Assembly (NCBI GenBank): GCA_041167305.1
Contig: JBEEHI010000138.1
Coordinates: forward strand, 1-55,134
Origin: Verrucomicrobiota bacterium
GTDB taxonomy: Bacteria > Verrucomicrobiota > Verrucomicrobiia > Chthoniobacterales > UBA10450
Length of the DNA stretch: 55,134 bases
Direction: 5' to 3'
In this document: in pieces, positions 13,288-35,812 of the stretch
Position numbering within the stretch: position 1 is the first letter of the stretch
How the letters are laid out: each line of letters starts with the position of its first letter
Program-made: the position numbers and the translations under genes
Notes under the pieces: generated by a model
Told to the model about the DNA's origin: nothing
The model's input: the letters and a program-made list of their open reading frames with translations, nothing else
Databases searched by the model: none

Positions 13288-13568
13288 GCCTTGAGGCGAG
13301 GTGACGTGTCAACGGCGCCGAACGTCCTGAGAGACCCGAGGACGCCCAAACCCTAAACATCAACCCATGATCAAGTAACCACTCTTGTGTGCGCGCCCTG
13401 GAAATCTTTTGGGTCCGACTGGTATTGCCGTCGGAATCAAGGGCGCGCCGCATCAGTGGGAGTCGGAATCCATCCGGCGTTCGAGCCTCCGGTGGACATA
13501 AGATGGTACCTGAAGAGGAATCACAAACTCGGCTGCGCGAGCAGCTGTTCGAACCAGAGGAAACTGCA

Positions 13569-16500
13569 ATGAGATACACCCACCTGTTCCGCCTTGGCAG
13601 CGCCGTAGCACTCCTGGCATTCGCCTTGGGCCCAGCAGCACCGGCAAAGGAAGCTCCCGTCGTGTGCAACCGCACCATCAAGGTGCAGATAGTCGCCTTC
13701 GATCAACCATGGATGTGGAATCGTCTCGGCGCAGCGCAGCCCGGCGGCATGATCTACGCGCTGGCCCGCGACGTTGTGAAGAACATGGATGGCTCGCCCT
13801 TGCCGGACGACTTGAAAGCTCTAAAGCCGGAGGATTCTAAATCGCTTTGCGGTGGCGTGCGCCTCCGCGATGGCAAACGCGCGCGTCCGCTCGTCCTGCG
13901 CGCGAACAAAGGGGATTGCCTCGAGATCACTTTCTTGAATCTGCTCCAACCGGATCCCGTGGCGGCGGACAACCGCCTGCCGGCTGCGGCTACTCGCTTT
14001 GCCGGGATCCATGCGGCGGGGATGGAGTTGGGAGACAAGTCGAGCGACTCGTCCTGGGTCGGCAACAATCCGAGCAGCCTCGCCGAAAACGGACAGACCA
14101 AGATCTATAAGTGGTACGCCGCAGAGGAAGGAACCTTCCTCATATATAGCGCCGCCGATATGGAAAGTGGTTATCAAGCCAAGGAAGGCTTGTTCGGCGC
14201 GATCCACGTCGAGCCCGAAGGGGCGGAATGGTATCGCAGCCAGATCACTCATGACGATCTGGAGCAGGCGACATTAACCGAGGCCGACTTGAAGGAGTAT
14301 TCCCAGAAATTGGTCGGAGCTTCCGTCGCAGCCGATCCACCGCCAAAGACGGCGGAAAAGATCGCGCCGGCGGCCGAGAAACCGCCGCCGGGAGCCGAAA
14401 ACTTTACCAAGAAAACGCTGGAAAGCTACGTCGCCGACAAGCGCTCCAGTGTCACCGTCTTCGTGGATGAAAAAGGCGCGGGCGGAAAACGTATCCATAC
14501 GGCCACCGGCCAGCCGCGGATCTATTATAACGCCCTGTATCCGGCGAAGGAGCAAAAGCGTGGCGTGCCTGTGCTGCAAATGCTGCAAGTAAATCCAGTT
14601 GGCGCGGCCCTGTACGACCAGCCTTTGCAGAAACAAAACCCAGCCGATTACATTGAGGAGGTGAGCGATTTGGACGCGGGCATCATTCCGGCCAAACTGC
14701 GGGCCCTCTTCAAAGATAAGAAACAGGAGCTCTCGCCCGGCGCGAAGGTGGTTGAGCAATACCGTTATAGCTGGCTGATCACCGACGAGGGCAAGGCCTT
14801 TTACGTGACGGCGAACCTTCCATCGACAGCGCAGGTAGCGCAGGCCCGTCAGCTCCAGATTTTCGCGGCCGAGCTGGAGCTGATTTATAGCGATCTCACC
14901 GCTGTGATTACCGGACCGAACGCCGGCAGGTTCTCGTACGCCAACACGAGCCCGACCTTTCGGGAGAACCCGGCTTCGCCCGATCGCCGCCAGCCGTACC
15001 GCGAGTACACGATAATTTATCATCAAGCCTTTTTCGCCACGCAAAGCTTTGCGTCTTTTGCGAACGCGAATCTGGTCAACGTCATTCAGCCTGGCGCCGA
15101 TAACTTCGCCATCAATTACGGTTCGGCCGCCATCGGCCCTGAGATAGTGGCGAATCGGCTGGGGGTGGGACCGATGGGAAATCGGGACGCGGTGGACTTA
15201 AAGTTTGAAGAATTCTTCCTCAGCGCCTGGGCGGTCGGAGATCCCGCCATGGTGGTGGATCATCCCGCGAATGCTTCCAACGCGATGGTCGGTTCTCCTT
15301 CTCTGGATGAGCACAGCGCGCTGCGGACCCAGGTTCCGCCAGGGTCCGTCGCCCAGCAACTCGCCGCCGCTCACGCGCCGCCGCTGCCGCGCCCGGCACA
15401 AGTGAGTCCGCCGGGAAGCGACGACTTCGCCCCGCTGCCGGCGCCGCCCGTCAAAGCGACGAAGGCGTTTTTTCCGGCTGATCCGTCGAACGTCTACCAC
15501 AGCTACATGAACGACCACGTGAAGTTCCGCATCCTCCATGCGGGACCCGGCCCGTCGCACGTCCATCATTTGCACGCGCACCAGTGGTTGCGCTCACCCG
15601 ATAGCGACGACGGCCATTATCTGGATAGCCAGCTCATCGTGCCGGGTTCGGCCTTCACTTTGGAGATCACCTACAACGGCAGTGGCAACCGCAATAAAAC
15701 GGTGGGGGATGCGATTTTCCACTGCCACTTTTATCCCCATTTTGCCCAGGGCATGTGGGCCATGTGGCGCGTTCACGACGTGTTCGAGGGAGGAACGCTG
15801 CTGGACAAAAACGGAGTACCGCTCAGTGGGGTCAACCGGGCGTTGCCGGATGGTGAGATCGAGCACGGCACCCCGATCCCGGCGATCGTGCCGCTGCCCA
15901 CTTTGGGCATGGCTCCGATGCCGGCGGAAGTGGAGCTCACGGACCTTTCGCCTTGGTCGCCGGGAGGGCAAGGCCGGCGAGTCCTCGTCCATAAGGAAAA
16001 GGACGGGACGTATCGGAGCCCGGGCTATCCCTTCTTCATCCCAGGAGTCGCCGGGCACCGCCCGCCGCACCCGCCGCTCGATTTTGCCTGGCTGGAGGAG
16101 CCTGATACCGGCAAGGCGATCCTGAGCCCGAGCCCATCGCCAGACCCAAGCCCTGGCAAGGATAGGAAGATTTATCTCGATGGCGGCCTGCCGCGCCACC
16201 TGGTCCTGGATGGTAAGGTGGTCAAGGAGTTCCATACGCGCTGGGACTTCAGCAAAGACACCGCGCTGCGCGATAAGGATGGAAATATTATTCCCGGCGG
16301 CGAGTTGTCGGCTTTCGAGCTCCCGGAGGAGGGCACGCCGGTAGAGCTTGCGGCCATGAAGGAACACGCCACGCGGACCCGGCCGACGACCCAGCCCAAT
16401 GGCGATCCCGGAAATTTCATCCTCAACGGTTTGCCTCCAACGCCGGGAGCGCCCTACGCCGATCCAGCGGTGACGGATGAAGGGAATGCCAACCCGCATC

Positions 16501-19500
16501 GCCGACGGTATCAAGCCGCCGTGTTTCAAATCGACACAGTTCTAAATAAGAAGGGCTGGCACTATCCCCAACAGCGAATGATTTCGCTCTGGCAGGATGT
16601 GAAACCGACGGTCGACACCACGCGCCCGCCGCAGCCCTTCTTCTTCCGCACCAATACTTCGGATAGCATCCAATACTGGCATACCAATCTGCTGCCGAGT
16701 TACTATGAGCTGGACGATTTCCAGGTCCGCACGCCAACGGACATCGTGGGGCAGCATATCCATCTGGTGAAGTTCGACGTGACTTCCTCCGACGGCGCGG
16801 AGAATGGGTTTAACTATGAGGACGGCACTTACGCGCCCGACGAGGTCCAGGAGCGGATCGCTTCCATCAATGCCAAGGGCGGTTTGTTTGCCTTCGACCC
16901 GGCGACGGGATTTGTGAATAAGGCGGCGCAACAAACACTTACCCCTAAGAAGGTCAAAGATTACTATCCGCCTCCCGACAGCAAATATGCCGGGCTGGAC
17001 GGCAATGGTGTTCCGACATGGACAAATCCGAATCCCAACGTGCTCTCCGTGTTCGGTCCGCCGACGGGCCGTTCCGATGCATGGGATGGCGCCCAGACGA
17101 CGATCCAACTCTGGGAGGTAGACGCACTCCTCAATAATGAAGGAGTCGACCGGACGCTGCGGACCGTCTTCACGCACGACCACTTCGGGCCGTCGACCCA
17201 CCAGCAGGCGGGTCTCTACGCGGGTATGATCGTCGAGCCGGAAAACTCGGAATGGTACCTGCCCGATGGTCTGCGGATGAACACGCGGCTCGATGGCGGT
17301 CCCACCAGTTGGCACGGATATATCGTGACCGACGATCCCAAAGATAGTTATCGCGAGTTTGTCCTCGAGTTCCAGGACATGCAGCTGGCCTACACCAAAG
17401 AGAGCCGGAAGAAGCCCTCGGCCAAAATGTTCGATCCCGATCTGGATCCCAAGGATTGCGGGGAGAACGGTAAGGAATGCTCCTCGCCGGCGTTCGACAT
17501 TGCGCAGGCCCATAGCATCGCCGGGATAAAGATCACCTACCTGCCCCTGTACGTCGCCGATCTGGACCAGGGCAAGCTTCCGGTGCCCCCACCGCAGGCA
17601 ATCGGCGCTGCGCCGTTCACCGAATTGTTCCCGCAGTTTGGAATTCCGCTTTCGAAAAATGCGACGGTGGCGGTCGTGACCAAAGGGGAGAAATGGACGA
17701 TCACGGAAGCGGCGAACGAAATCAACGGCAAGGCGAGCGACGGCAAGGCGACGAAATATATCGTGCGCGCCACGTTTGAAGCAAACCCCACGACGGGCGG
17801 CAAAACAATCAAGCAGCTATTGGTTTACACGCCGGATATTTCCCCGGGCTGGGCCGACGCGAAGTTTGCCCTCAATGCGCCGGGCGACAATGAAAACGCC
17901 GGGAATGGACCGCCGTTCGCGCAAATCGTGAGCCAGAACCAGAACGGCACCTATTCGCTGAATTATCGCAACGAACCGGTGCCATTCCGAGTCGCCTGCC
18001 CGCCGAATATGACCGAAAACGCCGACCTGGCGCTGGCCTTTAGCTCGATCAAGCGGAGCGATGCAGACCTAAACATCCAGCCCGACGGGAAGCCTGGCTT
18101 TCCCAAAACGCCGCTGGTGCCAAATGCAAAGGGGACGGATCCCTATACGCCACTGCTCGAAGCTTACGTGAACGATCGTGTGCAAATTCGCACGCTCGTA
18201 GGCGCGCACACGCAAGCGCACGCTTTCCAAATTCATGGAGTGAAATGGTTGTATGAGCCCGATAATCCCAACTCGGGTTGGCGCAACGCGCAACTCATGG
18301 GGCTCTCGGAACACTTCGAAATGATTTTCGACTTGCCCGGCACCACCTTCAAGCACGGGGGGCCAAACCCCGTTCCTGACCCGCAGATGCCGCCGTTCGC
18401 CGATTATTTTTATTCGCCCAGCTCCGACATCGTCGGATTGAACAATGGCCTTTGGGGAATCATGCGCTCTTATGGCGCCCCCGTTCCGGGTGTGCAGCCA
18501 TTGCCGAACAATCCGAAGCCCGCCTCCAATGTCGAAAACGACCTGTTCAAAGATGGATATGACAAGGCTCCGAAAGCCCTCCGACAGGACTTCAAAGTCA
18601 CGGCGGTGACGGCGGATGTGCTCCCGAATGGCAATCTGATTTACAACGGCCGCGATCCGGGCAGCCAGCTCTCCACCAATGAAGCGGTGCTCTTCGTTCG
18701 CACCGACGATCTGGACCCCACAACAAAGAAACTAAAATCTAGCGTGCCAGTCGAGCCTTTGATTCTTCGGGCCGCGGCGGGCCAATGGATCAAGGTGACT
18801 TTGCACAATGCGTTCGATGTGAAAAGCAAAGCGTTGACGGATATCGAGACGCTTCCTTATGGCACCCCCTTTACCGGTGGACCGGACGCTCCGGAACCCG
18901 GTCTGAAGACTTCCGCAAAGGTCGGCTTGCACCCGCAATTGGTCGGCTTCGATCCAATCAACGCAAACGGTGTCCTCGTCGGGTTCAATCCGAAAGACCG
19001 GCTGGTGGACCCAGGCCAGACGCGCGATTTCTATTGGTATGCCGGGGAGCTAAGGCGAGACGAAAACGGAAAGATTCAGGCGCAGCCGATCGAGTTTGGC
19101 GGCACGAACCTTACTTCGGCCGATCAACTGCTTCAGCCCCAGTTCGGCATGGTGGGCGCGCTGATCATTGAGCCGGAAGGCGCCACCTGGACCGAGGATG
19201 TCTCCAGCCGCGCCTCTGCCACCGTCAAGTTCCCGGGCGGCGCCGATTTCCGGGAATTCGTGGTGATCGATCAGAACATGGTGGCCAACTCGGCGGCGGA
19301 CAATAGTGTTCTGGCCAGTGTCGCGGGAAGCGCAATCGGGGCAATAAATTACCGCTCGGAGCCGTTTGGGATTCGCGGCGTGCCGAGTAACGCCCAAAAC
19401 TTTCCACAGCCTGCGCCGCAGGGGTACGCGCAAGCCTTCTCCAATAGCATGTTCAATCCGCCGGCCGATCCGCAAACCCCGGTGTTCGTGGCCGCAGCTG

Positions 19501-20105
19501 GAACGCCGACGCGTTTCCGAATGCTCGTTCCCAGCACGGCCACGAGTAATGCCATCAACGCGCCACCCGTCTTCATCGTTCACGGCCATAACTGGCTGGA
19601 AGAGCCCTACGTTTTCGATTCCTCGAAAATCGGCTCTAATCCGCTTTCCGAAACACAGGGCGCCGTGCAAGGCGGCGTAGGCCAGAAGTTCGATCTGGTC
19701 TTCCCCAGCGCCGGTGGTCGCAATAAAGTTGCGGGCGATTATCTTTACACCACGTACCAAACCGCCGGGCGGGCCGGCACCTGGGGCCTCTTCCGGGTAA
19801 CGCCGTACCAAGTGGCGATCGAGAAAGCGACTCTCGTGAAAGACACGGTCGAGGTGAGCGGAACAGTGCAGGCGGCGACGACGGTAGGCGGTGGCGTCAT
19901 GCCAAAGAATTTGCTGTTAACGATCGCCAGCGAGAAGAACGCCGGGGCCGAGGCGGGAACCCCCAGAACCATCAAGGTCAATGATGGAAAATGGTCGTAC
20001 AAGGGCACGACAAAGCTTCTCGCGCCCGCGCGCGTCCAAGTCACCGCGTTTGGAGACGACAATTTGGTTGCCGCCACCAGTTCAGCGATACTCACCGCCC
20101 GCTAG
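13569..20105 (+). CDS. giant secreted multicopper oxidase-like protein (2,178 aa; MnxG-like large MCO)
   Basis: ATG 13569 with GAGGAA 7 nt upstream. Signal peptide MRYTHLFRLGSAVALLAFALGPAAPA. Copper motifs HVHHLHAH (15558-15581), HCHFYPHFAQGM (15720-15755), HIH (16755-16763), THDHFGPSTHQQAGLYAGMIVEP (HDH at 17175-17183), HAFQIHG (18207-18236) and HGH (19581-19589). Confidence 0.85.
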   Translation: MRYTHLFRLGSAVALLAFALGPAAPAKEAPVVCNRTIKVQIVAFDQPWMWNRLGAAQPGGMIYALARDVVKNMDGSPLPDDLKALKPEDSKSLCGGVRLRDGKRARPLVLRANKGDCLEITFLNLLQPDPVAADNRLPAAATRFAGIHAAGMELGDKSSDSSWVGNNPSSLAENGQTKIYKWYAAEEGTFLIYSAADMESGYQAKEGLFGAIHVEPEGAEWYRSQITHDDLEQATLTEADLKEYSQKLVGASVAADPPPKTAEKIAPAAEKPPPGAENFTKKTLESYVADKRSSVTVFVDEKGAGGKRIHTATGQPRIYYNALYPAKEQKRGVPVLQMLQVNPVGAALYDQPLQKQNPADYIEEVSDLDAGIIPAKLRALFKDKKQELSPGAKVVEQYRYSWLITDEGKAFYVTANLPSTAQVAQARQLQIFAAELELIYSDLTAVITGPNAGRFSYANTSPTFRENPASPDRRQPYREYTIIYHQAFFATQSFASFANANLVNVIQPGADNFAINYGSAAIGPEIVANRLGVGPMGNRDAVDLKFEEFFLSAWAVGDPAMVVDHPANASNAMVGSPSLDEHSALRTQVPPGSVAQQLAAAHAPPLPRPAQVSPPGSDDFAPLPAPPVKATKAFFPADPSNVYHSYMNDHVKFRILHAGPGPSHVHHLHAHQWLRSPDSDDGHYLDSQLIVPGSAFTLEITYNGSGNRNKTVGDAIFHCHFYPHFAQGMWAMWRVHDVFEGGTLLDKNGVPLSGVNRALPDGEIEHGTPIPAIVPLPTLGMAPMPAEVELTDLSPWSPGGQGRRVLVHKEKDGTYRSPGYPFFIPGVAGHRPPHPPLDFAWLEEPDTGKAILSPSPSPDPSPGKDRKIYLDGGLPRHLVLDGKVVKEFHTRWDFSKDTALRDKDGNIIPGGELSAFELPEEGTPVELAAMKEHATRTRPTTQPNGDPGNFILNGLPPTPGAPYADPAVTDEGNANPHRRRYQAAVFQIDTVLNKKGWHYPQQRMISLWQDVKPTVDTTRPPQPFFFRTNTSDSIQYWHTNLLPSYYELDDFQVRTPTDIVGQHIHLVKFDVTSSDGAENGFNYEDGTYAPDEVQERIASINAKGGLFAFDPATGFVNKAAQQTLTPKKVKDYYPPPDSKYAGLDGNGVPTWTNPNPNVLSVFGPPTGRSDAWDGAQTTIQLWEVDALLNNEGVDRTLRTVFTHDHFGPSTHQQAGLYAGMIVEPENSEWYLPDGLRMNTRLDGGPTSWHGYIVTDDPKDSYREFVLEFQDMQLAYTKESRKKPSAKMFDPDLDPKDCGENGKECSSPAFDIAQAHSIAGIKITYLPLYVADLDQGKLPVPPPQAIGAAPFTELFPQFGIPLSKNATVAVVTKGEKWTITEAANEINGKASDGKATKYIVRATFEANPTTGGKTIKQLLVYTPDISPGWADAKFALNAPGDNENAGNGPPFAQIVSQNQNGTYSLNYRNEPVPFRVACPPNMTENADLALAFSSIKRSDADLNIQPDGKPGFPKTPLVPNAKGTDPYTPLLEAYVNDRVQIRTLVGAHTQAHAFQIHGVKWLYEPDNPNSGWRNAQLMGLSEHFEMIFDLPGTTFKHGGPNPVPDPQMPPFADYFYSPSSDIVGLNNGLWGIMRSYGAPVPGVQPLPNNPKPASNVENDLFKDGYDKAPKALRQDFKVTAVTADVLPNGNLIYNGRDPGSQLSTNEAVLFVRTDDLDPTTKKLKSSVPVEPLILRAAAGQWIKVTLHNAFDVKSKALTDIETLPYGTPFTGGPDAPEPGLKTSAKVGLHPQLVGFDPINANGVLVGFNPKDRLVDPGQTRDFYWYAGELRRDENGKIQAQPIEFGGTNLTSADQLLQPQFGMVGALIIEPEGATWTEDVSSRASATVKFPGGADFREFVVIDQNMVANSAADNSVLASVAGSAIGAINYRSEPFGIRGVPSNAQNFPQPAPQGYAQAFSNSMFNPPADPQTPVFVAAAGTPTRFRMLVPSTATSNAINAPPVFIVHGHNWLEEPYVFDSSKIGSNPLSETQGAVQGGVGQKFDLVFPSAGGRNKVAGDYLYTTYQTAGRAGTWGLFRVTPYQVAIEKATLVKDTVEVSGTVQAATTVGGGVMPKNLLLTIASEKNAGAEAGTPRTIKVNDGKWSYKGTTKLLAPARVQVTAFGDDNLVAATSSAILTAR

Positions 20106-21726: not shown

Positions 21727-22201
21727 TTCGCTTCGTCTCCTTTGTCTCCTCGCCTTATTGGTTCCATTCACGGCCTGGTCGCAAGGCAGCCCGCCACCGG
21801 AAACCGATGCCTCGGCTACCGTGGAACTGCTCGCGACCGTTCCCGAAAAAGGGGCCGAGACGAAAGATCTCGGTGAAACTCTTAAGCTCAATGCTTCCGG
21901 CCCCACGTTCGTCTGGGCCAAGGTTACTTTGAACGGAGTGAAAAACGCCCAGGGACTCAGATTCTTCGTTGAATGGCAGATCAAGGATGGAAGCGACTGG
22001 CGGCCACTCCGTGCGGACCACCCGCGCAAACCGCTTGATATCAGTCTGTCATCTCCAAACTCTCCAGTTTTCCAAAAAACCAATTTGCAAAGGCTGGTTT
22101 CGCAAGAGCTGAAGCCCTCGGACAAAGGCACGCTTCGAGTACGAGTGCTATACGGGGACGACAAGGAACTGGCTCAGGACGAAGTAACGCTGGCAAAGTA
22201 A
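21707..22201 (+). CDS. secreted hypothetical protein
   Basis: 164 aa. Signal peptide MKIPALDSLRLLCLLALLVPFTAWSQG. No recognisable domain. Confidence 0.6.
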   Translation: MKIPALDSLRLLCLLALLVPFTAWSQGSPPPETDASATVELLATVPEKGAETKDLGETLKLNASGPTFVWAKVTLNGVKNAQGLRFFVEWQIKDGSDWRPLRADHPRKPLDISLSSPNSPVFQKTNLQRLVSQELKPSDKGTLRVRVLYGDDKELAQDEVTLAK

Positions 22202-22243
22202 ACGTTTGCGAGGGACCCAGGAAATCTCCCTGCCGCTCTCGGC

Positions 22244-23008: not shown

Positions 23009-24019
23009 CTACGAAATGCCGACGGCAAACTGCGCTGGTCCAAGCTTCAACTTCACCCAGCGGCGGGCGTGCCGCTTTGGGACCGAAGACCAAAGCGCGA
23101 TTTCTTTCGTCAGCTCGGTCACATAATCGCGCGCCATTCTGAGGTAGTGATAATGTTCCAGGGCGAGGACGCGGCAAGCCAGCGGTGAGATGCGGCCGAT
23201 ATTTTCAACGGCACAAACGTAGTCACCGAAATTCGAACAGACAAAGCCCGCTTCAGGCGGCACGAGTTCCGGACACGCACCGCGATCGCTGCAAATGACC
23301 GGCGTCCCGGACATCAACGCTTCGGCGACCACAAGGCCAAAGGTCTCGTTGGCGAGAGTGGGAAAAAGTAAGGCGCGCGCGCCGGCAAATAGCTCCGCCT
23401 TTCTCTTGCCTGAAACGTGCCCGACATAAGTGATGCCTTCCTGCGCAAACATCTGCAAGATGGCTGGCGCCGGCGGTTGATCGGGGGAACCGCCGGCCAC
23501 CACGAGCTTGAGCCCGCAAGCACGTACCAGCGACCTCGCCACCTCGAAACCCTTAAGCTGCAAAGTAGCCATATTGGCCACGACAAAGAGAAAATAATCG
23601 CGCTTGGTTTCCGAATAAATTAGTTCGCTTGGGTCGATGCCATTGGTGACATAGCGGCGCCGATAGAACGATGACGCGTGCGCCTTGGAGACAAAAATCC
23701 AATTTCGCCGTATGTGCCGCCAGATTCGATCCCGAGGTTTACGTGGAGAATGGTAAGGACGCACCCAGGGAACGCCGCGCGTCTCCGGCGAAGTCCACGG
23801 ACTGTAGTCCTGGAGCACCATGGCATCGACGTTGTAGCGCCGCTTTCGGACGAGCTCGACACCCTCGGGCAGCCGGGTGGCGGCGCCGCCTTCGAGTTTA
23901 TAAATAACGGTGTGTCCCAGCTCGGCCAAGCCTTTCGCCAGGCAGTCTGCGATTCGGTCGGATGCCATGCCGCCGTCGCTTGCTGGATATCGGTGGCCCG
24001 AAGCGATGAGAATTTTCAT
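23009..24019 (-). CDS. glycosyltransferase family 4
   Basis: 336 aa. ETFGLVVAEALMSGTPVICSDRGACPELVPPEAGFVC. ATGA overlap with the upstream 719-aa gene. Confidence 0.85.
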   Translation of the reverse strand: MKILIASGHRYPASDGGMASDRIADCLAKGLAELGHTVIYKLEGGAATRLPEGVELVRKRRYNVDAMVLQDYSPWTSPETRGVPWVRPYHSPRKPRDRIWRHIRRNWIFVSKAHASSFYRRRYVTNGIDPSELIYSETKRDYFLFVVANMATLQLKGFEVARSLVRACGLKLVVAGGSPDQPPAPAILQMFAQEGITYVGHVSGKRKAELFAGARALLFPTLANETFGLVVAEALMSGTPVICSDRGACPELVPPEAGFVCSNFGDYVCAVENIGRISPLACRVLALEHYHYLRMARDYVTELTKEIALWSSVPKRHARRWVKLKLGPAQFAVGIS

Positions 24020-26175
24020 GCGGCCACTGCGCGCTCAGATGTGGGTGTCCCAGGCAAATACAGAAACGCGTAGCGCTTCACCACATCGCCATGTTTCTCC
24101 AGCGCGGTCAGATAATTCTCAATTACCTCCTCATCGTATTTCCGGCGCGAAAGATAGGTTTGCGTGCGCGCTTTCCATTCCGCCAGTTGAGCGCCGTCGT
24201 CGCAGGCGCCCAGATAGTCGGCCACGATCGCGTTCCAATCCCGTAGGTGGCGAAGATACGATTTCGAAAAAAGCCGCCGAACTTTCGGATCGCGCTCCAG
24301 CGCCTGGCGAGTGCGCCAGCAGGCGATCTTCATCGCTTCGTTCAGATAATCATAGCCGCGGGCGCGCTCCGCCTCCGTCACGTGATAAATCTGCGCGAGG
24401 AAAAACAGGTCGCTCCGGGCGATCTGTTTCGGGCGTCCCGGGTTGCCGCGGATGAAGCACTCGTCCAGCACCGCTGTTCTCAAGGCGCCCTGGGGCCAGA
24501 ACACCTCTTCGTCTTCCTCCGGAACAAACAGATTATCATGGTCCATGGAAAGGAGCCGCGAAGTCCATTCGCCTCGGACGAACGTGCTCTTGAGACCCAC
24601 ATTACGGCCTACGAATGATTCTCCGTAGGTAAAGCCCCCGAGGGCGAGAACCGTGCCCCAGAGCAGGCCAAGATCGGAGACCGCCCCCGCATGAAGAAGA
24701 TCCGCGCGCCGTCGGTTTTCCGGTACAGCGAAGGCCGCTGCGAGGTATTGAGCGTGATCTGCGTAGGCGACCGCGGGCGCTTGATAAATGCCCAGCACTT
24801 CATCGAGCAGCGCATCGGCGAAACGCCGCGCCTCGTCGCGGCTGTAACATTCCCGCTTCAGTCCGCGCTGAAAATAAATCTCTGCGCCTGCGTGGGAGAA
24901 ATATTTCGTGAGCGTATCGAGGCGGTAGGAAGTGGTTTGCGCGAGCAGGCCCTGGCACGGCAGAACATGGTAAAGGAAGCGGCCGGTGAGTCCCGCCTCA
25001 CCCGGCAGATGAGCGAAGTCGCGGCCGAACTGCTGGTCGAACGCGGAAATGCATTGCTTCATCTGCTGCCGCATCTCTGGATGGCCGGCGCCAAAAACTT
25101 CCGGGTCGGTAAAGTAGTCGAGCAGGTGAACGTCACGGCCCTGACACGGCACCGTTCTATAACTCGCCAGCGCGAGCAATTTGGAGATGGGGGCTTCACC
25201 GCCGTGCGCCGCGCGATAGACTTCCGAAAAGATTGCGGCGTGGTTCGATTCCCAGCGCAGGCCCGCGGTGGAAGCGCCGCCCTGTAAACGATGCGACGGC
25301 GGGACGGCTTCGCCTTTGTGGGCAAACGAAGCCGAGAGCGGGAAAGAACCGCGAAGACCCGTGCGCTTGATCTCGATTTCCAGCGAGCTGCCCGGTGGTT
25401 TCACCACGCAAACGACCGTGCCAATTGGATTCTCGAGCAGGCGATTGATCGCGGAGGAGGTCCGTTCGCAGGCCCAATAAACCCTCGCGCGCTGGCTCAG
25501 GCGCCGCACGATTTCCCGTTCATAGGCTGGCAGGTGCGACAGGTACCGCTCCGCTTCCGCCTCGCCGAGATCTTCCAGCGGGGAGGTGAGACCCGAGGAA
25601 ACTTGCAACTGCTTCCACACCCGCTCCACCACTTCCGCCGGCGTGAAAAGGTGGCGGGCGAGGGCGACTTTGCAGGGATCACGAGAGATGACGATGAAGT
25701 CGTCGAGCGCTTGGGTCGTCGTGTCAAAACCGCACAAACCGCGATGGGTTCGCTCAAGCCGGCGAAGATGGTGCCGAAATTGGACGCTGAAGGCGCGGAG
25801 TTCGGTGGAGGTGTAACCCTGCCGCAGCACGTCGGCCTGCACGCCGCGCGCGTCGGATTCCAACAATCCCAGGCTGGCGAAAAGCGAGGTGAATTCCTCA
25901 CTGGCATCGATCGGGAGCCGGAGGCATTGATTGGCCAGCATCAGGGCAGCAAACAAACGGAGGTTCCATGAAGCGCCGCCGCCGCCACGCCCGAGCCGCA
26001 CCAGCTCGAGGGCAAAACGCCGTTCGTAATGATTCAGCGCAAGGAATGCGCTGACCACATCCGCAGCGAGCGGTTCGCCGGGGAAGCGGGCGGCCACGAC
26101 CTGCGCCAAATTCGCGGGAAGCGGCGGGCCGGCCTCGCGGCGGCTGAAAATCTCGCCGGGGGGATGTGCGGGCAT
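24016..26175 (-). CDS. large hypothetical protein (719 aa), no family recognised
   Basis: Long ORF with ordinary, non-low-complexity composition, translationally coupled to the GT4. It contains only weak kinase-like strings (VVCVVKPPGSSLEIEIKRTG, SMDHDNLF). Confidence 0.6.
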   Translation of the reverse strand: MPAHPPGEIFSRREAGPPLPANLAQVVAARFPGEPLAADVVSAFLALNHYERRFALELVRLGRGGGGASWNLRLFAALMLANQCLRLPIDASEEFTSLFASLGLLESDARGVQADVLRQGYTSTELRAFSVQFRHHLRRLERTHRGLCGFDTTTQALDDFIVISRDPCKVALARHLFTPAEVVERVWKQLQVSSGLTSPLEDLGEAEAERYLSHLPAYEREIVRRLSQRARVYWACERTSSAINRLLENPIGTVVCVVKPPGSSLEIEIKRTGLRGSFPLSASFAHKGEAVPPSHRLQGGASTAGLRWESNHAAIFSEVYRAAHGGEAPISKLLALASYRTVPCQGRDVHLLDYFTDPEVFGAGHPEMRQQMKQCISAFDQQFGRDFAHLPGEAGLTGRFLYHVLPCQGLLAQTTSYRLDTLTKYFSHAGAEIYFQRGLKRECYSRDEARRFADALLDEVLGIYQAPAVAYADHAQYLAAAFAVPENRRRADLLHAGAVSDLGLLWGTVLALGGFTYGESFVGRNVGLKSTFVRGEWTSRLLSMDHDNLFVPEEDEEVFWPQGALRTAVLDECFIRGNPGRPKQIARSDLFFLAQIYHVTEAERARGYDYLNEAMKIACWRTRQALERDPKVRRLFSKSYLRHLRDWNAIVADYLGACDDGAQLAEWKARTQTYLSRRKYDEEVIENYLTALEKHGDVVKRYAFLYLPGTPTSERAVAA

Positions 26176-26272
26176 ATCCCTCTATTTCCAACAAAACGAG
26201 ATGCCGCGCCAAGCACAATTTCCGCCAGATTTAGATTGAAGCTGGAAGTGGAAACTCCCTACCCTTGCAGCC

Positions 26273-28237
26273 GTGGTTCGGAACACTCCCCAGCTCACCG
26301 GCATGATTTCGTCCTGGTCGCGCACGATGGTGATTCTCTTGGGCCTCGGGGCGCTGGCCGCCGCGGGGCCCGAACCAATCCGCGGGACATTGGAGGACAA
26401 AGGGATCCGGGTCGCGTTTGAAGTCGCGCGGGTGGCTGCGCCCGACGCGCGCGGCGAATCATTTCAGGAAGGCGACGCCGTGCGGTTTGGTTTCACCATC
26501 ACAGATTCCGCCGGAAAAGCTCCCATTCGGGGCGCGAACGCCCGCGCCTGGCTGAGCTTGCGCCGTGAGGGCGAAATCCCGGCGGCGAATGCGCCGAAAG
26601 TGAAAGCGTCGCGTTTTCTCACTGGCGGCATCTTCGGCCAGGCTGATCTCGATTTGAATTCGTTCTATGTCCTGGCTTTGAACGGTGACGCCAGCATCTC
26701 CGTGGTCGATCCGCTTTTCGGTTTTGGGAACACAAAGCTTCTCGCCCTTATTCCGCTCTCGGCAAATGGCTACGACTGGGCGCTGACGCAGGACCAGTCG
26801 AAGCTCTTCGTTTCGATTCCGGAAAAAGGGCAAATCGCAGTGATCGATACTTCCCGCTGGGAAGTGGCCAAGTACATCGAAGCGGGCCTGCGTCCCGCGC
26901 GGCTTGCACTCCAGCCCGATGAACAATATCTCTGGGCCGCCGGCAGCGAAGGCGACTCGAACACCAGCGCGGTCGCATTTCGCACCGATACTTTCGCGCC
27001 TGTGGCCCGGCTGCCCATTGGCCGCGGCAATCATGCCTTCGCGGTGACGCGCAACAGCACCTTCGTCTTCATCACCAATGGCGAAGATGATTCCATTTCA
27101 ATCATCGACACCCGGGCCCTGGCGAAAGTGAAGGAGATCAAAGTGGGCCGCGGGCCAGTGGCAGCCACCTATTCGGAGTTGGCCGATGCGCTTTATGTGT
27201 GCGTAGCCGACGCTGGTGAAATTGCGGTGGTCGATGCAAAAACCCTGACGCTGGCCAAGACCATTCGGGCGCAGACGGGCCTCGCCGACATTGCGACCGC
27301 GCCCGGCGGGCGTCATGTGCTCGCGGTGAATCGGAAAACGGACGTCGTCGAGGTGATCGATACATCGTCCAGTGAAATCATTCAGACCGGAACCGTAGGC
27401 AAGGCGCCGTTTCAAATTTCGTTTTCGCGCGACCTTGCCTACATCAACCATCTCGAAAGCACGGAAATTTTCATGCTCCCGCTCTCGCAGATCGGCCGGC
27501 GCGGCCAGCCGCTTTCGGTGGTCACCTTTCCCGCCAGTCAGCGTCCGCTCGGCGAAGCGTGGCGCGGCAGCCCCGCAGCCCGCATCGTGCCCGTGCCGGG
27601 AGAAGCCGCTGTCCTGGTGGCCGACACCCTAGATCGCGCGATCTATTTTTACAAAGAGGGAATGGCGGCACCGATGGGCACCTTCACCAATTACAAGCGG
27701 GAGCCGATGGCCGTGCAGGTGGTCGATCGCACCCTGCGCGAGCGGAGTACGCCCGGGGTTTACGATACCGTGGCCAAGCTGGGAAAGCCGGGCATTTATG
27801 ATGTCATTTTTTTTCTCGACTCGCCCAAAATCGTCGATGGCTTCGAATTAACCGTCGCGCCGAACCCCAAGCTCGAAGCCGAACGAAACGGGCCGAAAGT
27901 GGTGATCGCGCCGCTGGTTCCAACGATGCCCACGAAAGGCGGCACGACCGCGACATTTAAGTTTCGAGTAACGGACAAGCAAACCAATGAGCCGGTCACG
28001 GGTCTTCGCGATATGGTGATCGTGATCATGGCGCCGGGAAACTGGCATGAGCGCCAGGTGGCCAAAGAGGAGGGAGACGGCGTCTATGGTGTGACCGTGA
28101 CGCCGCCCGAGGCGGGAGTCTATTACGCGCACGCGCAATGCCCTTCACTTAATGTTCAATTCGGAAACCCGCATTATCCCGTCTTGCGGATTGCGCCGGC
28201 CAGCTCGGCCAGCGCCGCAGCGAAGAAGAGTGAGTAG
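26273..28237 (+). CDS. secreted YVTN-type beta-propeller repeat protein with C-terminal Ig/FixH-like domain
   Basis: GTG 26273 (alternative ATG 26303). Repeats such as KLFVSIPEKGQIAVIDTSRWEV and TFVFITNGEDDSISIIDTRALAKV. C-terminal GVYGVTVTPPEAGVYYAHAQ. Confidence 0.7.
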   Translation: MVRNTPQLTGMISSWSRTMVILLGLGALAAAGPEPIRGTLEDKGIRVAFEVARVAAPDARGESFQEGDAVRFGFTITDSAGKAPIRGANARAWLSLRREGEIPAANAPKVKASRFLTGGIFGQADLDLNSFYVLALNGDASISVVDPLFGFGNTKLLALIPLSANGYDWALTQDQSKLFVSIPEKGQIAVIDTSRWEVAKYIEAGLRPARLALQPDEQYLWAAGSEGDSNTSAVAFRTDTFAPVARLPIGRGNHAFAVTRNSTFVFITNGEDDSISIIDTRALAKVKEIKVGRGPVAATYSELADALYVCVADAGEIAVVDAKTLTLAKTIRAQTGLADIATAPGGRHVLAVNRKTDVVEVIDTSSSEIIQTGTVGKAPFQISFSRDLAYINHLESTEIFMLPLSQIGRRGQPLSVVTFPASQRPLGEAWRGSPAARIVPVPGEAAVLVADTLDRAIYFYKEGMAAPMGTFTNYKREPMAVQVVDRTLRERSTPGVYDTVAKLGKPGIYDVIFFLDSPKIVDGFELTVAPNPKLEAERNGPKVVIAPLVPTMPTKGGTTATFKFRVTDKQTNEPVTGLRDMVIVIMAPGNWHERQVAKEEGDGVYGVTVTPPEAGVYYAHAQCPSLNVQFGNPHYPVLRIAPASSASAAAKKSE

Positions 28238-28248
28238 GACCTGATGCT

Positions 28249-29319
28249 ATGTTGATAAGGCGTCTCGGAATTCTGCTAACATCGGTGCTTGTGTGGGGCC
28301 CGAGTTGGACCAACGCCGCCGCGCCGCCGCAGATCAAGGATGTCCCGGACACCATGCTGGTGGATCAGGAAGGCCGGGAGGTCCGGTTCAAAAGCGACGT
28401 GCTCGGGGAGAAGACCGTCGCCATCCAGTTCATCTTTACTACCTGCCGCGCCATCTGTCCCGTCATGGGCGCTGCTTTTGCCAAGCTGCAAGACCGGCTG
28501 GGCGATCGGCTCGACAAGGATATTTCGCTCGTCTCCATCAGCATCGATCCCGTCACCGACACGCCCGTACGGATGAAACAATGGGGCGAACAATTTGGCG
28601 CGCGCCCCGGCTGGCGTCTGCTCACCGGCGAGAAGGGGAAGATCGAAAATCTGCTCAAGGCGCTCGAAGCCACCAATCACAACGCGCCAGTGGTGCTGCT
28701 CGGAAACTTGCGCACGGGCGAATGGGTGCGCTCCTACGACGACATCACCGCGCCCGACAAACTCTACGCCCAGCTCATCGATTTGGCGGACAAGCCCTCC
28801 CAGGCGCAAGAATACTTTGCCAATACGGTTCTGACCGACCAGGACGGAAAAAAGTTACGGCTCTACGAAGATCTACTGAAGGGAAAGGTCGTAGTAGTGA
28901 ATGCTTTTTTCTCCACCTGCCGGAGCGTTTGCTTGGAGACCATGCCGACTGTGGCTGCACTTCAGGCCGTGGCAGGAGACCGCCTGGGCAAAGACGTGAA
29001 CCTTCTCTCGATCTCGGTCGATCCACTCAATGATACTCCGGCAAAACTCAAAACTTATGCGCGAGCGCTTGGGGCGAAACCGGGCTGGTATTTTCTCACG
29101 GGCGATCAGCAGGCCGTCAACGATGCGCTATACAAGTTTGGCCAGTACGTCGAAGTCAGGGAGACCCACTCGAACGTGTTCCTCATGGGAAATGACCGAA
29201 CCCGCTTGTGGAAAAAGGTGCTGGGAACTCCGCAGGTCCCAGATAAGGCGGCGAGCTTCGAAGCTATTGCGGCGATCTTCCGTTCGGTTCTGAATGATAA
29301 GGGTGAGGCTAAACCTTAG
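28249..29319 (+). CDS. tandem double SCO1/SenC-family (thioredoxin-fold copper chaperone) protein
   Basis: Signal peptide. Two copies of the SCO signature: FTTCRAICPVM...SISIDPVTDTP (CxxxC at 28444-28458) and FSTCRSVCLET...SISVDPLNDTP (CxxxC at 28918-28932). Confidence 0.8.
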   Translation: MLIRRLGILLTSVLVWGPSWTNAAAPPQIKDVPDTMLVDQEGREVRFKSDVLGEKTVAIQFIFTTCRAICPVMGAAFAKLQDRLGDRLDKDISLVSISIDPVTDTPVRMKQWGEQFGARPGWRLLTGEKGKIENLLKALEATNHNAPVVLLGNLRTGEWVRSYDDITAPDKLYAQLIDLADKPSQAQEYFANTVLTDQDGKKLRLYEDLLKGKVVVVNAFFSTCRSVCLETMPTVAALQAVAGDRLGKDVNLLSISVDPLNDTPAKLKTYARALGAKPGWYFLTGDQQAVNDALYKFGQYVEVRETHSNVFLMGNDRTRLWKKVLGTPQVPDKAASFEAIAAIFRSVLNDKGEAKP

Positions 29320-30892
29320 CCGCGTCCGGCTGGTCGTCGCGATCTTGCTCGGCGTGCTCGCACTCGCGATGGCCGGCGAGAAGACTGTCGAGCCAGAGAA
29401 GCAAGCGCCGGCCGCAGTGCGTGGACGGGAGATTTACCGGACTGGAATCCCGCTGGATGGTCCTCCCTTGACGGCGAGCGTGGGCAGTCCGGCGATGGAA
29501 GTGCCGGCCAGCATTCTAAAGTGTGTGAATTGCCACGGCCAGGATGGGCGTGGCCAGGTCGAGGGAGGCATTGCACCCGCCAATATTCGCTGGGAGGAGC
29601 TGACCAAGCCCTCCGGCAGCGGTGCGGCCGGACGCCGCCAGCGGACCGCCTATTCCAGTACGCTGCTCATTCGGGCGATCGCGTCGGGGCTGGATGCGAG
29701 CGGCAATCGACTCGATCCGGCGATGCCACGTTACCACCTCACACATGAGCAAGCGGCCGATCTGGTGGCTTACCTCGAGGTGCTCGGCCGGGAAGCAGAT
29801 CCTGGAGTGACGGAGACCAGCTTGAAGATTGGTGTTGTCCTGCCACCGGCGAGCGTCACTGGCTCCGCGCGGGCGATCCGCGAGGTCATCGCGGCCTTTG
29901 TCCTTCAAGTAAATGAGCAAGGTGGCTTTTATGGCCGGAAACTCAGGCTCTCCTTCGTCACTTCTCCGGACGATGTCGAAGCCCGCGCCGGCGCCATTCG
30001 CGACTTTGTCGAAACGGAACAGCCATTCGCCCTAATCTCCAGTTATGTGGTCGGCTGTGAAGAGGAGGTCGGCCGTTATCTTGAGGAGAACAGGATACCG
30101 CTCATCGGGCCGATCGCTCTTTACGCGAAAGACGAGCCTTCGCGGCACAGGCACGTGTTCCATTTAGTAGCGGGACTGGCGGGCCAGGGCGAAGCGCTCG
30201 GCCGCTTCGCAGCACAACTGCCCGAGTTGAGCCACTCCGCCGCCCTCATGGTGCGCCGGGAAGGCGATGACGAGATCCGCGCACTGTCGGTGACAATTGG
30301 CAAACGCCTCATGGATGGCGGATGGGTTGCAGCCCGCGACGTGGCCCTCACGGAGACTTCGACGCCAGACTGGGCCGCACTTCTACGGAGCGGGGATACT
30401 TGTTCGGTCTTTTGGTTCGCCCCGGCGAGCGGATTGGATGAGTTTTACCGCGCTGCCGTTAAGGCCGGCTCGTATCCATTTCTTTTTGCGCCGAGCGTCC
30501 TTGCCGGAAACGAACTCCTCTCAGCGCCGGCGGGCTTCGCCGGACGGATTTTTTCTTCGTTCCCGACCCTCCCCTCCGATCAGACATCCGCCGGCAGAAG
30601 CGAGCTCTTGAAGCTGGCGAGCGAAGGGCATGTTTTCGACGGCAGCTTTCCCCGGATGGCGCTCTCCTCAGCCAAACTTCTCGTGCATGGCCTGCGACAG
30701 ATGGGAAAGGAAGTCAGCCGCGAAAAACTCGTCGAAACCCTGGAGAATCTCTACGACTACAACACGGAGCAGACGCCCGCGGTTACGTTTACGCGCAATC
30801 GGCGAGTGGGCGCGGGTGGCGCACACGTGGTGGGCGTTGACGTGCAGCGAAAATCGCTTGTTCTACCCTCCACGTGGGTGCCGCTCAATTGA
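29294..30892 (+). CDS. cytochrome c domain fused to a type I periplasmic binding protein (Leu/Ile/Val-binding-like) domain
   Basis: 532 aa. Signal/anchor, then CVNCHG (29522-29536), then a PBP1-like body (KIGVVLPPASVTGSA...IPLIGP...). Confidence 0.65.
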   Translation: MIRVRLNLSRVRLVVAILLGVLALAMAGEKTVEPEKQAPAAVRGREIYRTGIPLDGPPLTASVGSPAMEVPASILKCVNCHGQDGRGQVEGGIAPANIRWEELTKPSGSGAAGRRQRTAYSSTLLIRAIASGLDASGNRLDPAMPRYHLTHEQAADLVAYLEVLGREADPGVTETSLKIGVVLPPASVTGSARAIREVIAAFVLQVNEQGGFYGRKLRLSFVTSPDDVEARAGAIRDFVETEQPFALISSYVVGCEEEVGRYLEENRIPLIGPIALYAKDEPSRHRHVFHLVAGLAGQGEALGRFAAQLPELSHSAALMVRREGDDEIRALSVTIGKRLMDGGWVAARDVALTETSTPDWAALLRSGDTCSVFWFAPASGLDEFYRAAVKAGSYPFLFAPSVLAGNELLSAPAGFAGRIFSSFPTLPSDQTSAGRSELLKLASEGHVFDGSFPRMALSSAKLLVHGLRQMGKEVSREKLVETLENLYDYNTEQTPAVTFTRNRRVGAGGAHVVGVDVQRKSLVLPSTWVPLN

Positions 30893-30898
30893 TAGGCC

Positions 30899-31852
30899 AT
30901 GCGTTTGATCGTCGCTGAGTTGGGAGCTTACTCGCATTTCGTCACGCGCGAGTTTTCCTATATTATCCGCGAGTTGATTGAGGCCTATGGATGGAGGCAT
31001 CTGGAGCCTTCTGCGTTGCGCGGGGGAGCAATGCGAGAGCGACTCGTCCGTCATTGCGGAGATTTCCCGGAGGTCATTCTCTTCTGGGGTGGCGAGGGCT
31101 TTCTGTGCGAACACGACCGTGAGGTTGAAAAGCTGCCCGCAGCCAAATGGTTCGTCGCGGATGACCTGCACCATCATGACTCAATGCCTTATCGGGAAAG
31201 AGCGTTCCTGCTGTGTGACACGGTTCTTGCGACTTATGCCTATCGATTTGCGGAGTATTTTCCAGACACGGCAAAGTCCAGGCGTTTGGTCTGGCTGCCC
31301 CACTCCGCCTCTCCTGATTTTGCGCTCCCGTTCAACTCCCGGGCACGGAACGAACTCCTTCTAAGCGGGGCGATGTGCAACGCTTATCCTTTAAGACAAA
31401 GGGTGAATGCTTTAAGGGAAAGCGGCTTCGAAGGGATCGTTCACCTGCCTCATCCCGGTTATCACTGTCAATACGAATACGAAGCCGACGTCCGGATAGG
31501 GCGCGCCTTTGCCAAGCGGATGTGGGAGCACCGAGCCGCATTTACCGATTGCACGGTTTTCCAATATGCCGTCGCCAAGCATTTTGAAATTCCCGCCACC
31601 GGCGCTCTTCTCGTCGCCGATGTTTCCATCGAGAAGCCTTTGGGCAAGCTGGGTTTTGTGCCCGGAGTTCATTACTTCCCGGTGAGCGGGGGAGATTTGG
31701 GAGACCGTGTACGATATCTTCTCTGCGAAGAGCATCATGCCGAGCTGGACCAAATCAGAAGGAATGGCCAGGCGCTGGTCTTGGAACGCCATCGAACGAG
31801 CCACCGCGCCAAGCTGATCAACGATCTCGCGCTCCAAACCGGCCGGTCGTGA
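30899..31852 (+). CDS. CgeB-like / GT-B glycosyltransferase-like protein
   Basis: 317 aa. The C-terminal FEIPATGALLVAD...HYFPV...LDQIRRNGQALVLERHRTSHRA resembles the CgeB-family C-terminal domain. Confidence 0.5.
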   Translation: MRLIVAELGAYSHFVTREFSYIIRELIEAYGWRHLEPSALRGGAMRERLVRHCGDFPEVILFWGGEGFLCEHDREVEKLPAAKWFVADDLHHHDSMPYRERAFLLCDTVLATYAYRFAEYFPDTAKSRRLVWLPHSASPDFALPFNSRARNELLLSGAMCNAYPLRQRVNALRESGFEGIVHLPHPGYHCQYEYEADVRIGRAFAKRMWEHRAAFTDCTVFQYAVAKHFEIPATGALLVADVSIEKPLGKLGFVPGVHYFPVSGGDLGDRVRYLLCEEHHAELDQIRRNGQALVLERHRTSHRAKLINDLALQTGRS

Positions 31853-31956
31853 GCATCTTTTGCATGGCAATCCAGACGGCAGCTCTCTACGATCCCTTCG
31901 CTCCCCGACCAAAGAAACAACTGCGTGCAACGCGATTGCCGCAACCTCTCCAGATC

Positions 31957-32784
31957 ATGAGAAAATTGCGCACCCTTGCCCTCGCCACCAGCCTCTTCGC
32001 GTCTGCACTATTTCCCAGCGGGTGTCGCCGGCCGCAGGCGGAGCAGGTCGTCGTCACAGGCGCTAGTACTGTTTATCCCATCGTGCAGATGGCGGCGGAG
32101 GAGTTGCGCCGTACGAAGGGGCTTAACGTGATGGCTCAAGGAGGCGGGAGCACACGGGGCTTCGAAGATTGCATCGCGGGGCGCAACAGTCTCGGAGCGA
32201 TGGCCCGCGAGCTGACCCCGGAGGAAAAGGCTCAGGTACTTGTGTTCCCGATCGCCTATGATGGGGTGGGCATCGTCGTGCACGCTTCGAATCAATTCGC
32301 CGGAGTGACAACCGAGCAGCTGCAGCAAATCTATCGCAAGCAAATCACCAATTGGTCCAGCTTCGGCGGGCAAAATGCCAGCATCGTGGTGGTCCACAAA
32401 GGCGAAGGACACGCGACTCGCGAAGTCTTCATGAAGTACACCGGGCTGACCCCGGATGAGATGACCCGCTACACAGACGTGGCCGCGGGCGACAACGCCC
32501 AGGTCATCCGCGTAATCGCCAATACCCCCAACGCCATCGGCTATGTCAGCCTGGGTGAAGTGATCAAGGCAGCCGAAGCCGGCCAGCCCGTTCGTCTGGT
32601 TAAATTCAACGGCATCGAGCCGGTGATGGAGAACGTTACGAACAAGACCTATCCCCTCTTCCACCCGCTCTCTCTAATCTCCAAAGGAGAGCCGAAAGGC
32701 GGCAGCCGCGTCCTGCTGGATTTTCTGCGTAGCCCAGAGGGAAAGGCGATCATTCGCCGGGGAAATTATGTTCCGCTGGAGTAA
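31957..32784 (+). CDS. pstS: phosphate ABC transporter substrate-binding lipoprotein
   Basis: ATG 31957. Lipobox LFPSGC. GASTVYPIVQMAAEEL...GGGSTRGF...GYVSLGEV. Confidence 0.8.
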   Translation: MRKLRTLALATSLFASALFPSGCRRPQAEQVVVTGASTVYPIVQMAAEELRRTKGLNVMAQGGGSTRGFEDCIAGRNSLGAMARELTPEEKAQVLVFPIAYDGVGIVVHASNQFAGVTTEQLQQIYRKQITNWSSFGGQNASIVVVHKGEGHATREVFMKYTGLTPDEMTRYTDVAAGDNAQVIRVIANTPNAIGYVSLGEVIKAAEAGQPVRLVKFNGIEPVMENVTNKTYPLFHPLSLISKGEPKGGSRVLLDFLRSPEGKAIIRRGNYVPLE

Positions 32785-35723: not shown

Positions 35724-35782
35724 CGACGCGCTGCGGCCGTTGACCGTACCGACTGCATAACTCGCTCGGGCCGATCAGCAAC

Positions 35783-35812
35783 GATGCCGGCAGTTTTTTT
35801 CTGACTGGCATC
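35783..35812. terminator. imperfect hairpin with a T7 loop downstream of pstB (weak terminator candidate)
   Basis: gatgccggcag-ttttttt-ctgactggcatc gives about 11 bp with one bulge. There is no 3' U-tract. Confidence 0.25.

Follow-up and report, generated by a model that had tools for sequence, protein, structure and literature searches.

Introduction

Giant oxidases of the MnxG/MofA type are hard to study. The subject of this paper is a module of three exported proteins, called A, B and C here, which is encoded at positions 26273-30892 on the plus strand of contig JBEEHI010000138.1 from a Verrucomicrobiota bacterium (assembly GCA_041167305.1; the whole 55,134-nucleotide stretch analysed is referred to below as the window), and its relationship to a giant multicopper oxidase (MCO) encoded on the same strand. 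The closest described system is the mnxG operon of Pseudomonas putida GB-1, which comprises, in this order, mnxG and genes for a YVTN propeller, two SCO1/SenC proteins, a cytochrome c fused to a substrate-binding domain and a SurA-domain protein (PMC11409713, Table 4; PMC8218464, Fig. 2c), the same operon being drawn for GB-1 and for strain OF001 (PMC8218464, Fig. 2c). A second relative is the mofABC cluster of Leptothrix discophora (Brouwers 2000), which, as it is summarized in PMC5566968 and PMC8218464, shares with the window a MofC-like architecture beside a large secreted MCO and, in some clusters, an SCO-type gene. The mof clusters differ in carrying an FKBP-type peptidyl-prolyl isomerase (PPIase), MofB, and in that no propeller is reported in those summaries. 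MofC-like proteins are described as a cytochrome c joined to a periplasmic binding domain, and SCO genes are often found in clusters around MofA/OmpB-type MCOs, including GSU1394-1398 of Geobacter sulfurreducens (PMC5566968). This Geobacter ompB cluster shares with the window an outer-surface MCO (GSU1394), a MofC-like protein (GSU1397) and an SCO1/SenC protein (GSU1398), but it has a single SCO, no propeller has been reported from it and OmpB is implicated in Fe(III) oxide reduction rather than in Mn oxidation (PMC5566968).

Results

It is very probable, judged from homology and gene content, that A, B and C are orthologous to the conserved accessory block of MnxG/MofA-type giant MCO clusters. 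The first-pass annotation, made from the DNA letters alone, had described three consecutive plus-strand open reading frames (ORFs) with export signals, and direct reading of the N-termini, from which export was called throughout, bears this out, as each begins with a basic and then a hydrophobic stretch. Gene A (26273..28237) encodes a 654-residue YVTN-type propeller with a YtkA-like Ig domain, gene B (28249..29319) a 356-residue double SCO1/SenC protein and gene C (29294..30892) a 532-residue MofC-like fusion of cytochrome c and a periplasmic binding protein; the Pfam scores given for the three below exceed their gathering cut-offs. They are tightly packed, with a gap of 11 nucleotides (nt) between A and B, an overlap of 26 nt between B and C, and 6 nt from the stop codon of C to the next start. 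The four accessory types of the P. putida GB-1 mnxG operon are thus all present in the same order and linked to a giant MnxG-type MCO. A counterpart in Pseudomonas japonica (locus L053) encodes MnxG (3929.6 bits against the NCBIfam model, above its cut-off of 3100), a propeller, an N-type SCO, a C-type SCO, the cytochrome c-binding protein fusion and a protein with SurA_N and Rotamase domains, a layout that agrees with the one published for GB-1 (PMC11409713, PMC8218464). The propeller ORFs of four Pseudomonas loci (L048, L053, L079, L080) match window A with 294-340 bits, and that of P. japonica has the same Pfam profile as A, a weak YtkA tail included. Window C is 34-37% identical to the Pseudomonas proteins over about 490 residues (P. 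japonica E<=1e-81).

The window departs from the Pseudomonas operon in several respects. Its SCO domains are fused, whereas Pseudomonas has two genes; its module lies about 6.2 kb downstream of the MCO gene, past glycosyltransferase genes and two opposite-strand genes; and it lacks a SurA/PPIase gene, no PPIase gene being found among the window ORFs scanned and the gene after C being Glyco_trans_1_2-like. The SurA/PPIase gene is outside the cross-phylum core. The MCO itself has only 31-39% identity to Pseudomonas MnxG and scores under the equivalog cut-off, and the host is Verrucomicrobiota-like, the closest relatives of the window proteins being labelled Verrucomicrobiota or Chthoniobacterales. 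The first-pass annotation had placed a giant cuproenzyme near the module; an MnxG-type MCO is indeed there, upstream on the same strand, but it does not adjoin the module, the two being separated by about 6.2 kb that include two minus-strand genes. The same spaced layout is seen in L002/L003.

How far the module and the oxidase stay together was examined by scanning one genome per GTDB species with an alignment of C. At least 228 relatives were found, and the top 80 loci were retrieved with 10 kb of flank on each side; the window proteins were then mapped onto all loci by tblastn and by blastp at the level of ORFs. Counts out of 81 refer to all loci mapped, incomplete flanks included, while the full-flank set consists of 48 loci, free of duplicates and picked by homology to C only, in which C has 9 kb or more on each side. 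Within 10 kb of C, a giant MnxG-like MCO is encoded at 40 of the 48 full-flank loci, mostly as the immediate neighbour, and a homologue of A at 43. SCO is the commonest partner, with at least one at 46/48 and two SCO domains at 41/48. For a gene with one or two copies per genome, chance alone would place it within a given 20-kb neighbourhood about 1% of the time, so that module and MCO are linked far above chance; co-occurrence with the MCO gene was the test that the first-pass annotation had itself put forward, and it turned out above expectation. The loci span Verrucomicrobiota, Acidobacteriota, Beta-, Gamma- and Deltaproteobacteria and Entotheonella. A further locus, L087, which is likely planctomycete as judged by adjoining genes with PSCyt/PSD domains, encodes an MCO, a propeller, a 330-residue SCO protein and a cytochrome c. 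Searching in the opposite direction, from homologues of the MCO, gave many that share a contig with a homologue of C, and the distant MCOs of L087 and L088 are directly followed by propeller, SCO and cytochrome genes, in L088 with the full cytochrome c-binding protein fusion.

The commonest gene order is MCO, A, SCO, SCO, C, with the genes overlapping or nearly abutting; a Pyrinomonadaceae-type order runs A, SCO, C, SCO, MCO and then a gene for a 719-residue protein that is also found in the window. In L004/L037 the module lies between two MnxG-like MCO paralogues, which suggests that one module may serve two oxidases; paralogues on both flanks of the module were noted at L004/L037, L039 and L057, all Acidobacteriota. 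Among the loci where the MCO is not a close neighbour, L006 and L086 encode it on the same contig about 9.5 kb upstream, just past the 10-kb flank, with an inserted block of methyltransferase, PhyH, luciferase-like and glycosyltransferase genes between MCO and module. For L001/L007 and L005 the MCO was not seen inside the 10-kb flank.

The presumed client of A, B and C is the 2238-residue plus-strand ORF at 13389..20105, which, by its NCBIfam match and copper motifs, is a distant MnxG-type multicopper oxidase. It matches the NCBIfam MnxG model (NF041487) with 1032 bits in 8 stretches, under the equivalog cut-off of 3100 bits, and it aligns with P. japonica MnxG at 39% and 31% identity over 935 and 765 aligned columns. 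As in Pseudomonas MnxG, there are copper motifs HxxHxH (residues 724-731, nt 15558-15581) and HCHxxxHxxxxM (residues 778-789, nt 15720-15755). The likely start is the ATG at 13569; the signal after it is Sec-type and lacks a twin arginine, so that copper would go in after export. There were 1748 homologues, and one that is 87% identical carries the NCBI name 'manganese oxidase', which is an annotation only. A Pfam scan of 13389-20105 gave no match at E<=0.01 in spite of the clear copper motifs, and precomputed Cu-oxidase Pfam matches are attached to only a few of the homologues. Screens that use Pfam alone would miss this clade.

Protein B was confirmed to hold two complete SCO1/SenC domains, matching PF02630 with 132.6 bits in two stretches. 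The N-type domain (nt 28324-28743) has CRAIC at residues 66-70 (nt 28444-28458) and H144, and the C-type domain (nt 28804-29316) has CRSVC at residues 224-228 (nt 28918-28932) and H307; the signatures DPVTDTP and DPLNDTP occur one per half, as does the histidine. The PDB sequence matches are Bacillus subtilis Sco and Bradyrhizobium japonicum ScoI, and B shares with these canonical Sco/SenC proteins (B. subtilis 1xzo/1on4; B. japonicum ScoI 4wbj, with TlpA) the thioredoxin-like fold, Cys-x3-Cys with a distal histidine, and DPxxDTP. It differs from them in having two domains per chain, in that no oxidase subunit genes are near, and in that its client is apparently an MCO rather than a CuA or cbb3 oxidase.

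The order of N-type then C-type SCO is kept in almost every locus, split or fused, the earlier SCO of the pair there being closer to the N half of B and the later one to the C half; the two halves are not recent duplicates. The double SCO is thus a fusion of two ancient neighbouring paralogues that are separate genes in most relatives. Fusion is found at 12 of the 81 loci, namely all the Verrucomicrobial loci and several from Acidobacteriota. In L087 and L088 the sole SCO gene aligns with 324-340 residues of B (324 in L087), and so it is probably fused there too. The first-pass annotation had regarded a tandem SCO polypeptide and a cytochrome c fused to a binding protein as uncommon architectures; within the family this does not hold, as the latter defines the MofC-like family, with at least 228 relatives among GTDB species genomes and both domains in nearly all protein matches listed, and the former recurs at these dozen loci. 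CxxxC is retained in 73-74 of 74 N-type and 72-73 of 73 C-type domains and the histidine in 69/74 and 73/73 respectively, with DPxxDTP retained as well, a pattern that would fit copper binding by both halves of B. As SCO is the partner common to all Mn-oxidase-type MCO clusters, the ligands are kept in both types and the Sec-type signal of the oxidase would have it take up copper after export, copper handling is the favoured role; P. putida mcoA likewise has an SCO gene after it (PMC11409713).

Protein C combines, as had been described at first pass, a CVNCH haem site with a type I periplasmic binding-protein fold. The class I cytochrome domain (nt 29411-29788) matches Cytochrom_C (PF00034) with 33.9 bits (cut-off 21.3) and has CVNCH at residues 77-81 (nt 29522-29536) and a candidate axial ligand, Met144, at nt 29723. 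The binding fold (nt 29822-30889) matches Peripla_BP_6 (PF13458) with 66 bits (cut-off 31.7) over residues 177-504. An AlphaFold model of C (predicted local distance difference test, pLDDT, 85.8) gave LivJ/LivK-type proteins as the best Foldseek matches, with E-values of 1e-15 to 1e-13, a template-modelling (TM) score on the target of about 0.7 and about 15% identity; these matches are all generically LivJ/LivK-type and gave no clue to a ligand. We liken C to MofC by its described architecture (PMC5566968) and not by sequence. There were 122 homologues in the protein collection, nearly all of them two-domain. An alignment of 55 sequences, with identities as low as 30%, keeps C77, C80, H81, M144 and P145 without exception, which indicates a probable His/Met haem. 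Neither the window nor the related loci, as covered by gene tables and tblastn maps, showed a Liv-type permease gene near C, and so a transport role of the binding domain is unlikely; the reading of this domain as a transport receptor was rejected on these grounds. In L087 a 250-residue stand-alone cytochrome c without a binding-protein domain (18700-19452) follows the MCO, propeller and SCO genes, so that the haem half of the MofC-like protein seems the more indispensable.

These features of C raise the possibility, which we consider doubtful, that the module is a redox partner of the oxidase during turnover, with the MofC-like cytochrome and perhaps the Sco domains exchanging electrons with it. 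The electrons could pass from Mn(II) or another substrate to the respiratory chain, or outward as proposed for Geobacter OmpB. The invariant haem site with its invariant candidate Met ligand speaks for such a partner, as does the retention of the cytochrome domain and loss of the binding domain in L087; MofC was first proposed to be an electron carrier during Mn oxidation (PMC5566968), and Mn oxidation by P. putida requires cytochrome c maturation (ccm) genes (de Vrind 1998, Caspi 1998, as reported in PMC13631088 and PMC11409713). However, MCOs are established to give substrate electrons straight to O2, for which an external carrier is unneeded, and the most widespread partner is SCO and not the cytochrome, P. 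putida mcoA having only an SCO (PMC11409713). The Cys-x3-Cys and His triad kept in both SCO types also points to copper handling. Moreover, ccm mutants of P. putida lose all Mn oxidation although the McoA operon is without a cytochrome, and the ccm effect therefore cannot rest on the MofC-like protein alone.

Protein A probably begins at the ATG at 26303. A beta-rich N-terminal region precedes the propeller (residues ~168-400, nt 26774-27472), which matches Cytochrom_D1 with 33.4 bits (cut-off 25.5) and YNCE with 32 bits (27.1) in Pfam and the YVTN repeat of NCBIfam with 68 bits; the nearest PDB sequence is the YVTN S-layer propeller 1l0q (E 7.5e-25). The YtkA-like Ig domain follows at residues 548-617 (nt 27914-28123; 30.5 bits, cut-off 25.9), and there are weak Ig-like matches to Filamin and Invasin. 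Of the earlier description of A as a YVTN propeller with a FixH/Ig-like tail, the propeller and the Ig tail therefore stand, while FixH drops out, having given no match in the Pfam scan. Homologues of A occur at 66/81 loci, adjoining the MCO. An alignment of 64 sequences has the invariant or near-invariant residues D127-L-N129, D146-P147, D168-W169, Q214, D216, W221, H254, N269, D363, Y460 and E462-G-M464, and the polar ones among them (D127, N129, D146, D168, Q214, D216, H254, N269, D363, E462, M464) could make up a binding site. At residue 523 (about nt 27839-27841), where 58/64 homologues have Cys (motif hCF), the window protein has Gly, and it also lacks a second Cys, near residue 108, that most homologues share; a likely disulfide of the family has seemingly been lost in this lineage.

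Between the MCO and module, the plus strand encodes a GINT1_N/GH43-like protein (19991-20968) and a DXD sugar transferase (20860-21726), both assigned by Pfam, and two proteins without a family assignment (21707-22201 and 22244-23008). The minus strand encodes a GT1 glycosyltransferase (23009-24019; Pfam) and the conserved 719-residue protein (24016..26175), the latter divergent from A across a 97-nt spacer. The genes at 19991-24019 are conserved in Verrucomicrobial relatives (L002/L003, and partly L085, L086, L088 and L010). The 719-residue protein had no Pfam or NCBIfam match, and a PDB sequence search gave matches at chance level only. It has no signal peptide or membrane segment and is thus probably cytoplasmic. 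Its family numbers 161 homologues without a Pfam domain, from Verrucomicrobiota, Acidobacteriota and Planctomycetota. It is encoded at 19/81 loci, beside MCO clusters of Verrucomicrobiota and Acidobacteriota, and in Pyrinomonadaceae-type clusters it typically lies just downstream of the MCO. The AlphaFold model (pLDDT 92, predicted TM score 0.91) gave weak best PDB folds, YdiU/SelO (E 0.012, TM 0.24/0.33) and then protein kinases, and the residues invariant in the family include E266, E268, K270, N525 and D545-H546-D547. On the model, the protein is possibly kinase-like.

Around the MCO and module lies a wider island (1860-12854 and 19991-24019) that encodes an FMN reductase, a dehydroquinase/shikimate-dehydrogenase-like fusion, an acyl-CoA dehydrogenase, two luciferase-like monooxygenases, a PhyH dioxygenase and several glycosyltransferases, including the GINT1_N/GH43-like protein. 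In L085 and L086 this set likewise encloses the MCO and module, and in L088 it recurs in another order, at only 40-60% identity; its conservation hints at a linked biosynthetic function. Perhaps the substrate of the MCO is an organic or cell-surface compound made by this glycoconjugate or secondary-metabolite island, A, B and C still serving to mature the MCO. Besides the persistence of the set at such low identity, the position of GINT1_N, DXD-transferase and Glyco_trans_1_2 genes directly after the module in L088 and L010 speaks for this. We nevertheless think it distinctly improbable, as the proteobacterial clusters and most of the acidobacterial ones lack the island genes and have MCO, A, SCO and C by themselves, so that the association may be lineage-specific synteny, and no chemistry connects the island enzymes to an MCO substrate.

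Downstream of C are the plus-strand Glyco_trans_1_2-like gene (30899..31852; Pfam), which overlaps the next gene by 4 nt and is kept in this place in Verrucomicrobial relatives (L001, L005-L007, L010 and L088, by tblastn), and a pst-like ABC transporter (31849-35723, plus strand) of a PstS-like protein, two permeases and an ATPase, with overlapping stops and starts. The ATPase is fused to an LMWPc domain (low-molecular-weight phosphatase/arsenate-reductase-type; residues 426-562 of a 578-residue ORF), and a prokaryotic homologue of pentameric ligand-gated ion channels (Neur_chan_LBD and Neur_chan_memb) is encoded on the minus strand at 36124-37164, just downstream of the island. A scan for promoters and terminators over 19800-36500 gave counts equal to those in shuffled sequence and is thus uninformative on operon structure.

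The same-orientation transporter, and the fact that SCO is best known from cytochrome oxidase assembly, invite the suggestion that the module is unrelated to the MCO, being either a cytochrome oxidase copper-assembly set or the source of a binding protein for the transporter. We hold this to be highly improbable. The transporter has its own PstS-like protein and pst-type permeases and follows the module in Verrucomicrobial relatives only (L001, L005-L007, L010), and the linkage to the MCO is conserved across phyla. The first-pass annotation had allowed for an assembly operon whose oxidase genes lie elsewhere; this was rejected, as the 46 large ORFs that were scanned over the 55-kb window included no heme-copper oxidase gene. 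The sole oxidase from that scan is a copper-free cytochrome bd (48686-51105).

Discussion

The linkage to the MCO supports the first-pass reading of the module as one dedicated to maturation or to electron transfer. Of the two, we propose that A, B and C act in the periplasmic maturation of the giant MCO, that is, in its copper loading with redox support, a role that we hold with moderate confidence. From the domains, the conserved metal-ligand residues and the cross-phylum linkage that were observed, we infer the following biochemical steps. The oxidase would be exported unfolded through Sec and, once in the periplasm, would have to be supplied with four or more copper ions. Each half of B would bind copper by Cys-x3-Cys and His and hand it to the oxidase, and the two SCO paralogues may split the work, for example as a Cu(I) donor and a thiol-disulfide or Cu(II) handler. 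The His/Met haem of the MofC-like protein might give or take an electron so as to maintain the proper redox state of copper or of the Sco cysteines, and its binding-protein domain would be a docking or ligand-sensing clamp rather than a transport receptor. The propeller-Ig protein A could be a scaffold or chaperone for a very large client. A partial likeness is offered by the small MCO CutO of Rhodobacter capsulatus, whose maturation depends on CutF/CutG and where an operon-encoded periplasmic factor with an essential CxxxC matures an MCO (PMC8456105); CutF differs from B in being a small protein of another family.

Several points weigh against a role in copper maturation. The distance of about 6.2 kb and the two opposite-strand genes mean that MCO and A are not on one transcript in the window. 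Five of the 48 full-flank loci (L019, L022, L036, L043, L051) encode C, in some cases with SCO, but have no MCO or propeller gene nearby, and so C can work in other contexts; with partial flanks included, such loci have a single SCO (L019), a fused double SCO (L022, L029, L051) or C alone (L036, L043, L073). No alternative cuproenzyme client was obvious among the scanned neighbours at L022 and L051. The potential of a His/Met c-type haem is usually too high for the reduction of disulfides. Mn(II) is an uncertain substrate for the window MCO, given its 1032 bits against a cut-off of 3100. CutO of R. capsulatus needs CutF but can do without the housekeeping SenC (PMC8456105), and Sco-to-MCO copper transfer is thus not an established route. 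A literature search for PputGB1_2448-2452 found no experiment on the accessory genes, and on mnxG together with YVTN or SCO1 genes a single paper was found, a descriptive one. As a separate observation on L022, a double AhpC/thioredoxin protein is encoded there about 5 kb upstream.

A bolder extension of the maturation proposal, which we think unlikely as a whole, is a reductive metallation line for giant MCOs. In it, the MofC-like haem would serve the twin Sco by reducing Cu(II) to Cu(I), with the propeller joining in; this might be one reason why ccm mutants of P. putida lose Mn oxidation, and the kinase-like protein encoded at 24016-26175 could add a control step in Verrucomicrobiota and Acidobacteriota.

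The gene set itself is already in published tables and figures of the mnxG operon (PMC11409713, PMC8218464). What is added here is the definition across phyla of a core of four domains, the recognition of the two SCOs as ancient paralogues that have been fused in several lineages, and the Verrucomicrobial context, with its glycosyltransferase-rich island and a conserved, possibly kinase-like 719-residue protein. What is gained is a more precise, testable hypothesis and a definite set of core genes; the kind of system is not new, and it is now extended to soil Verrucomicrobiota. Propeller, two SCOs and a cytochrome c-binding protein fusion form a core that stays with giant oxidases across at least four phyla, which makes these genes natural candidates for maturation or redox factors still missing for giant MCOs, and good targets for the long-standing question of what else Mn-oxidising MCOs need.

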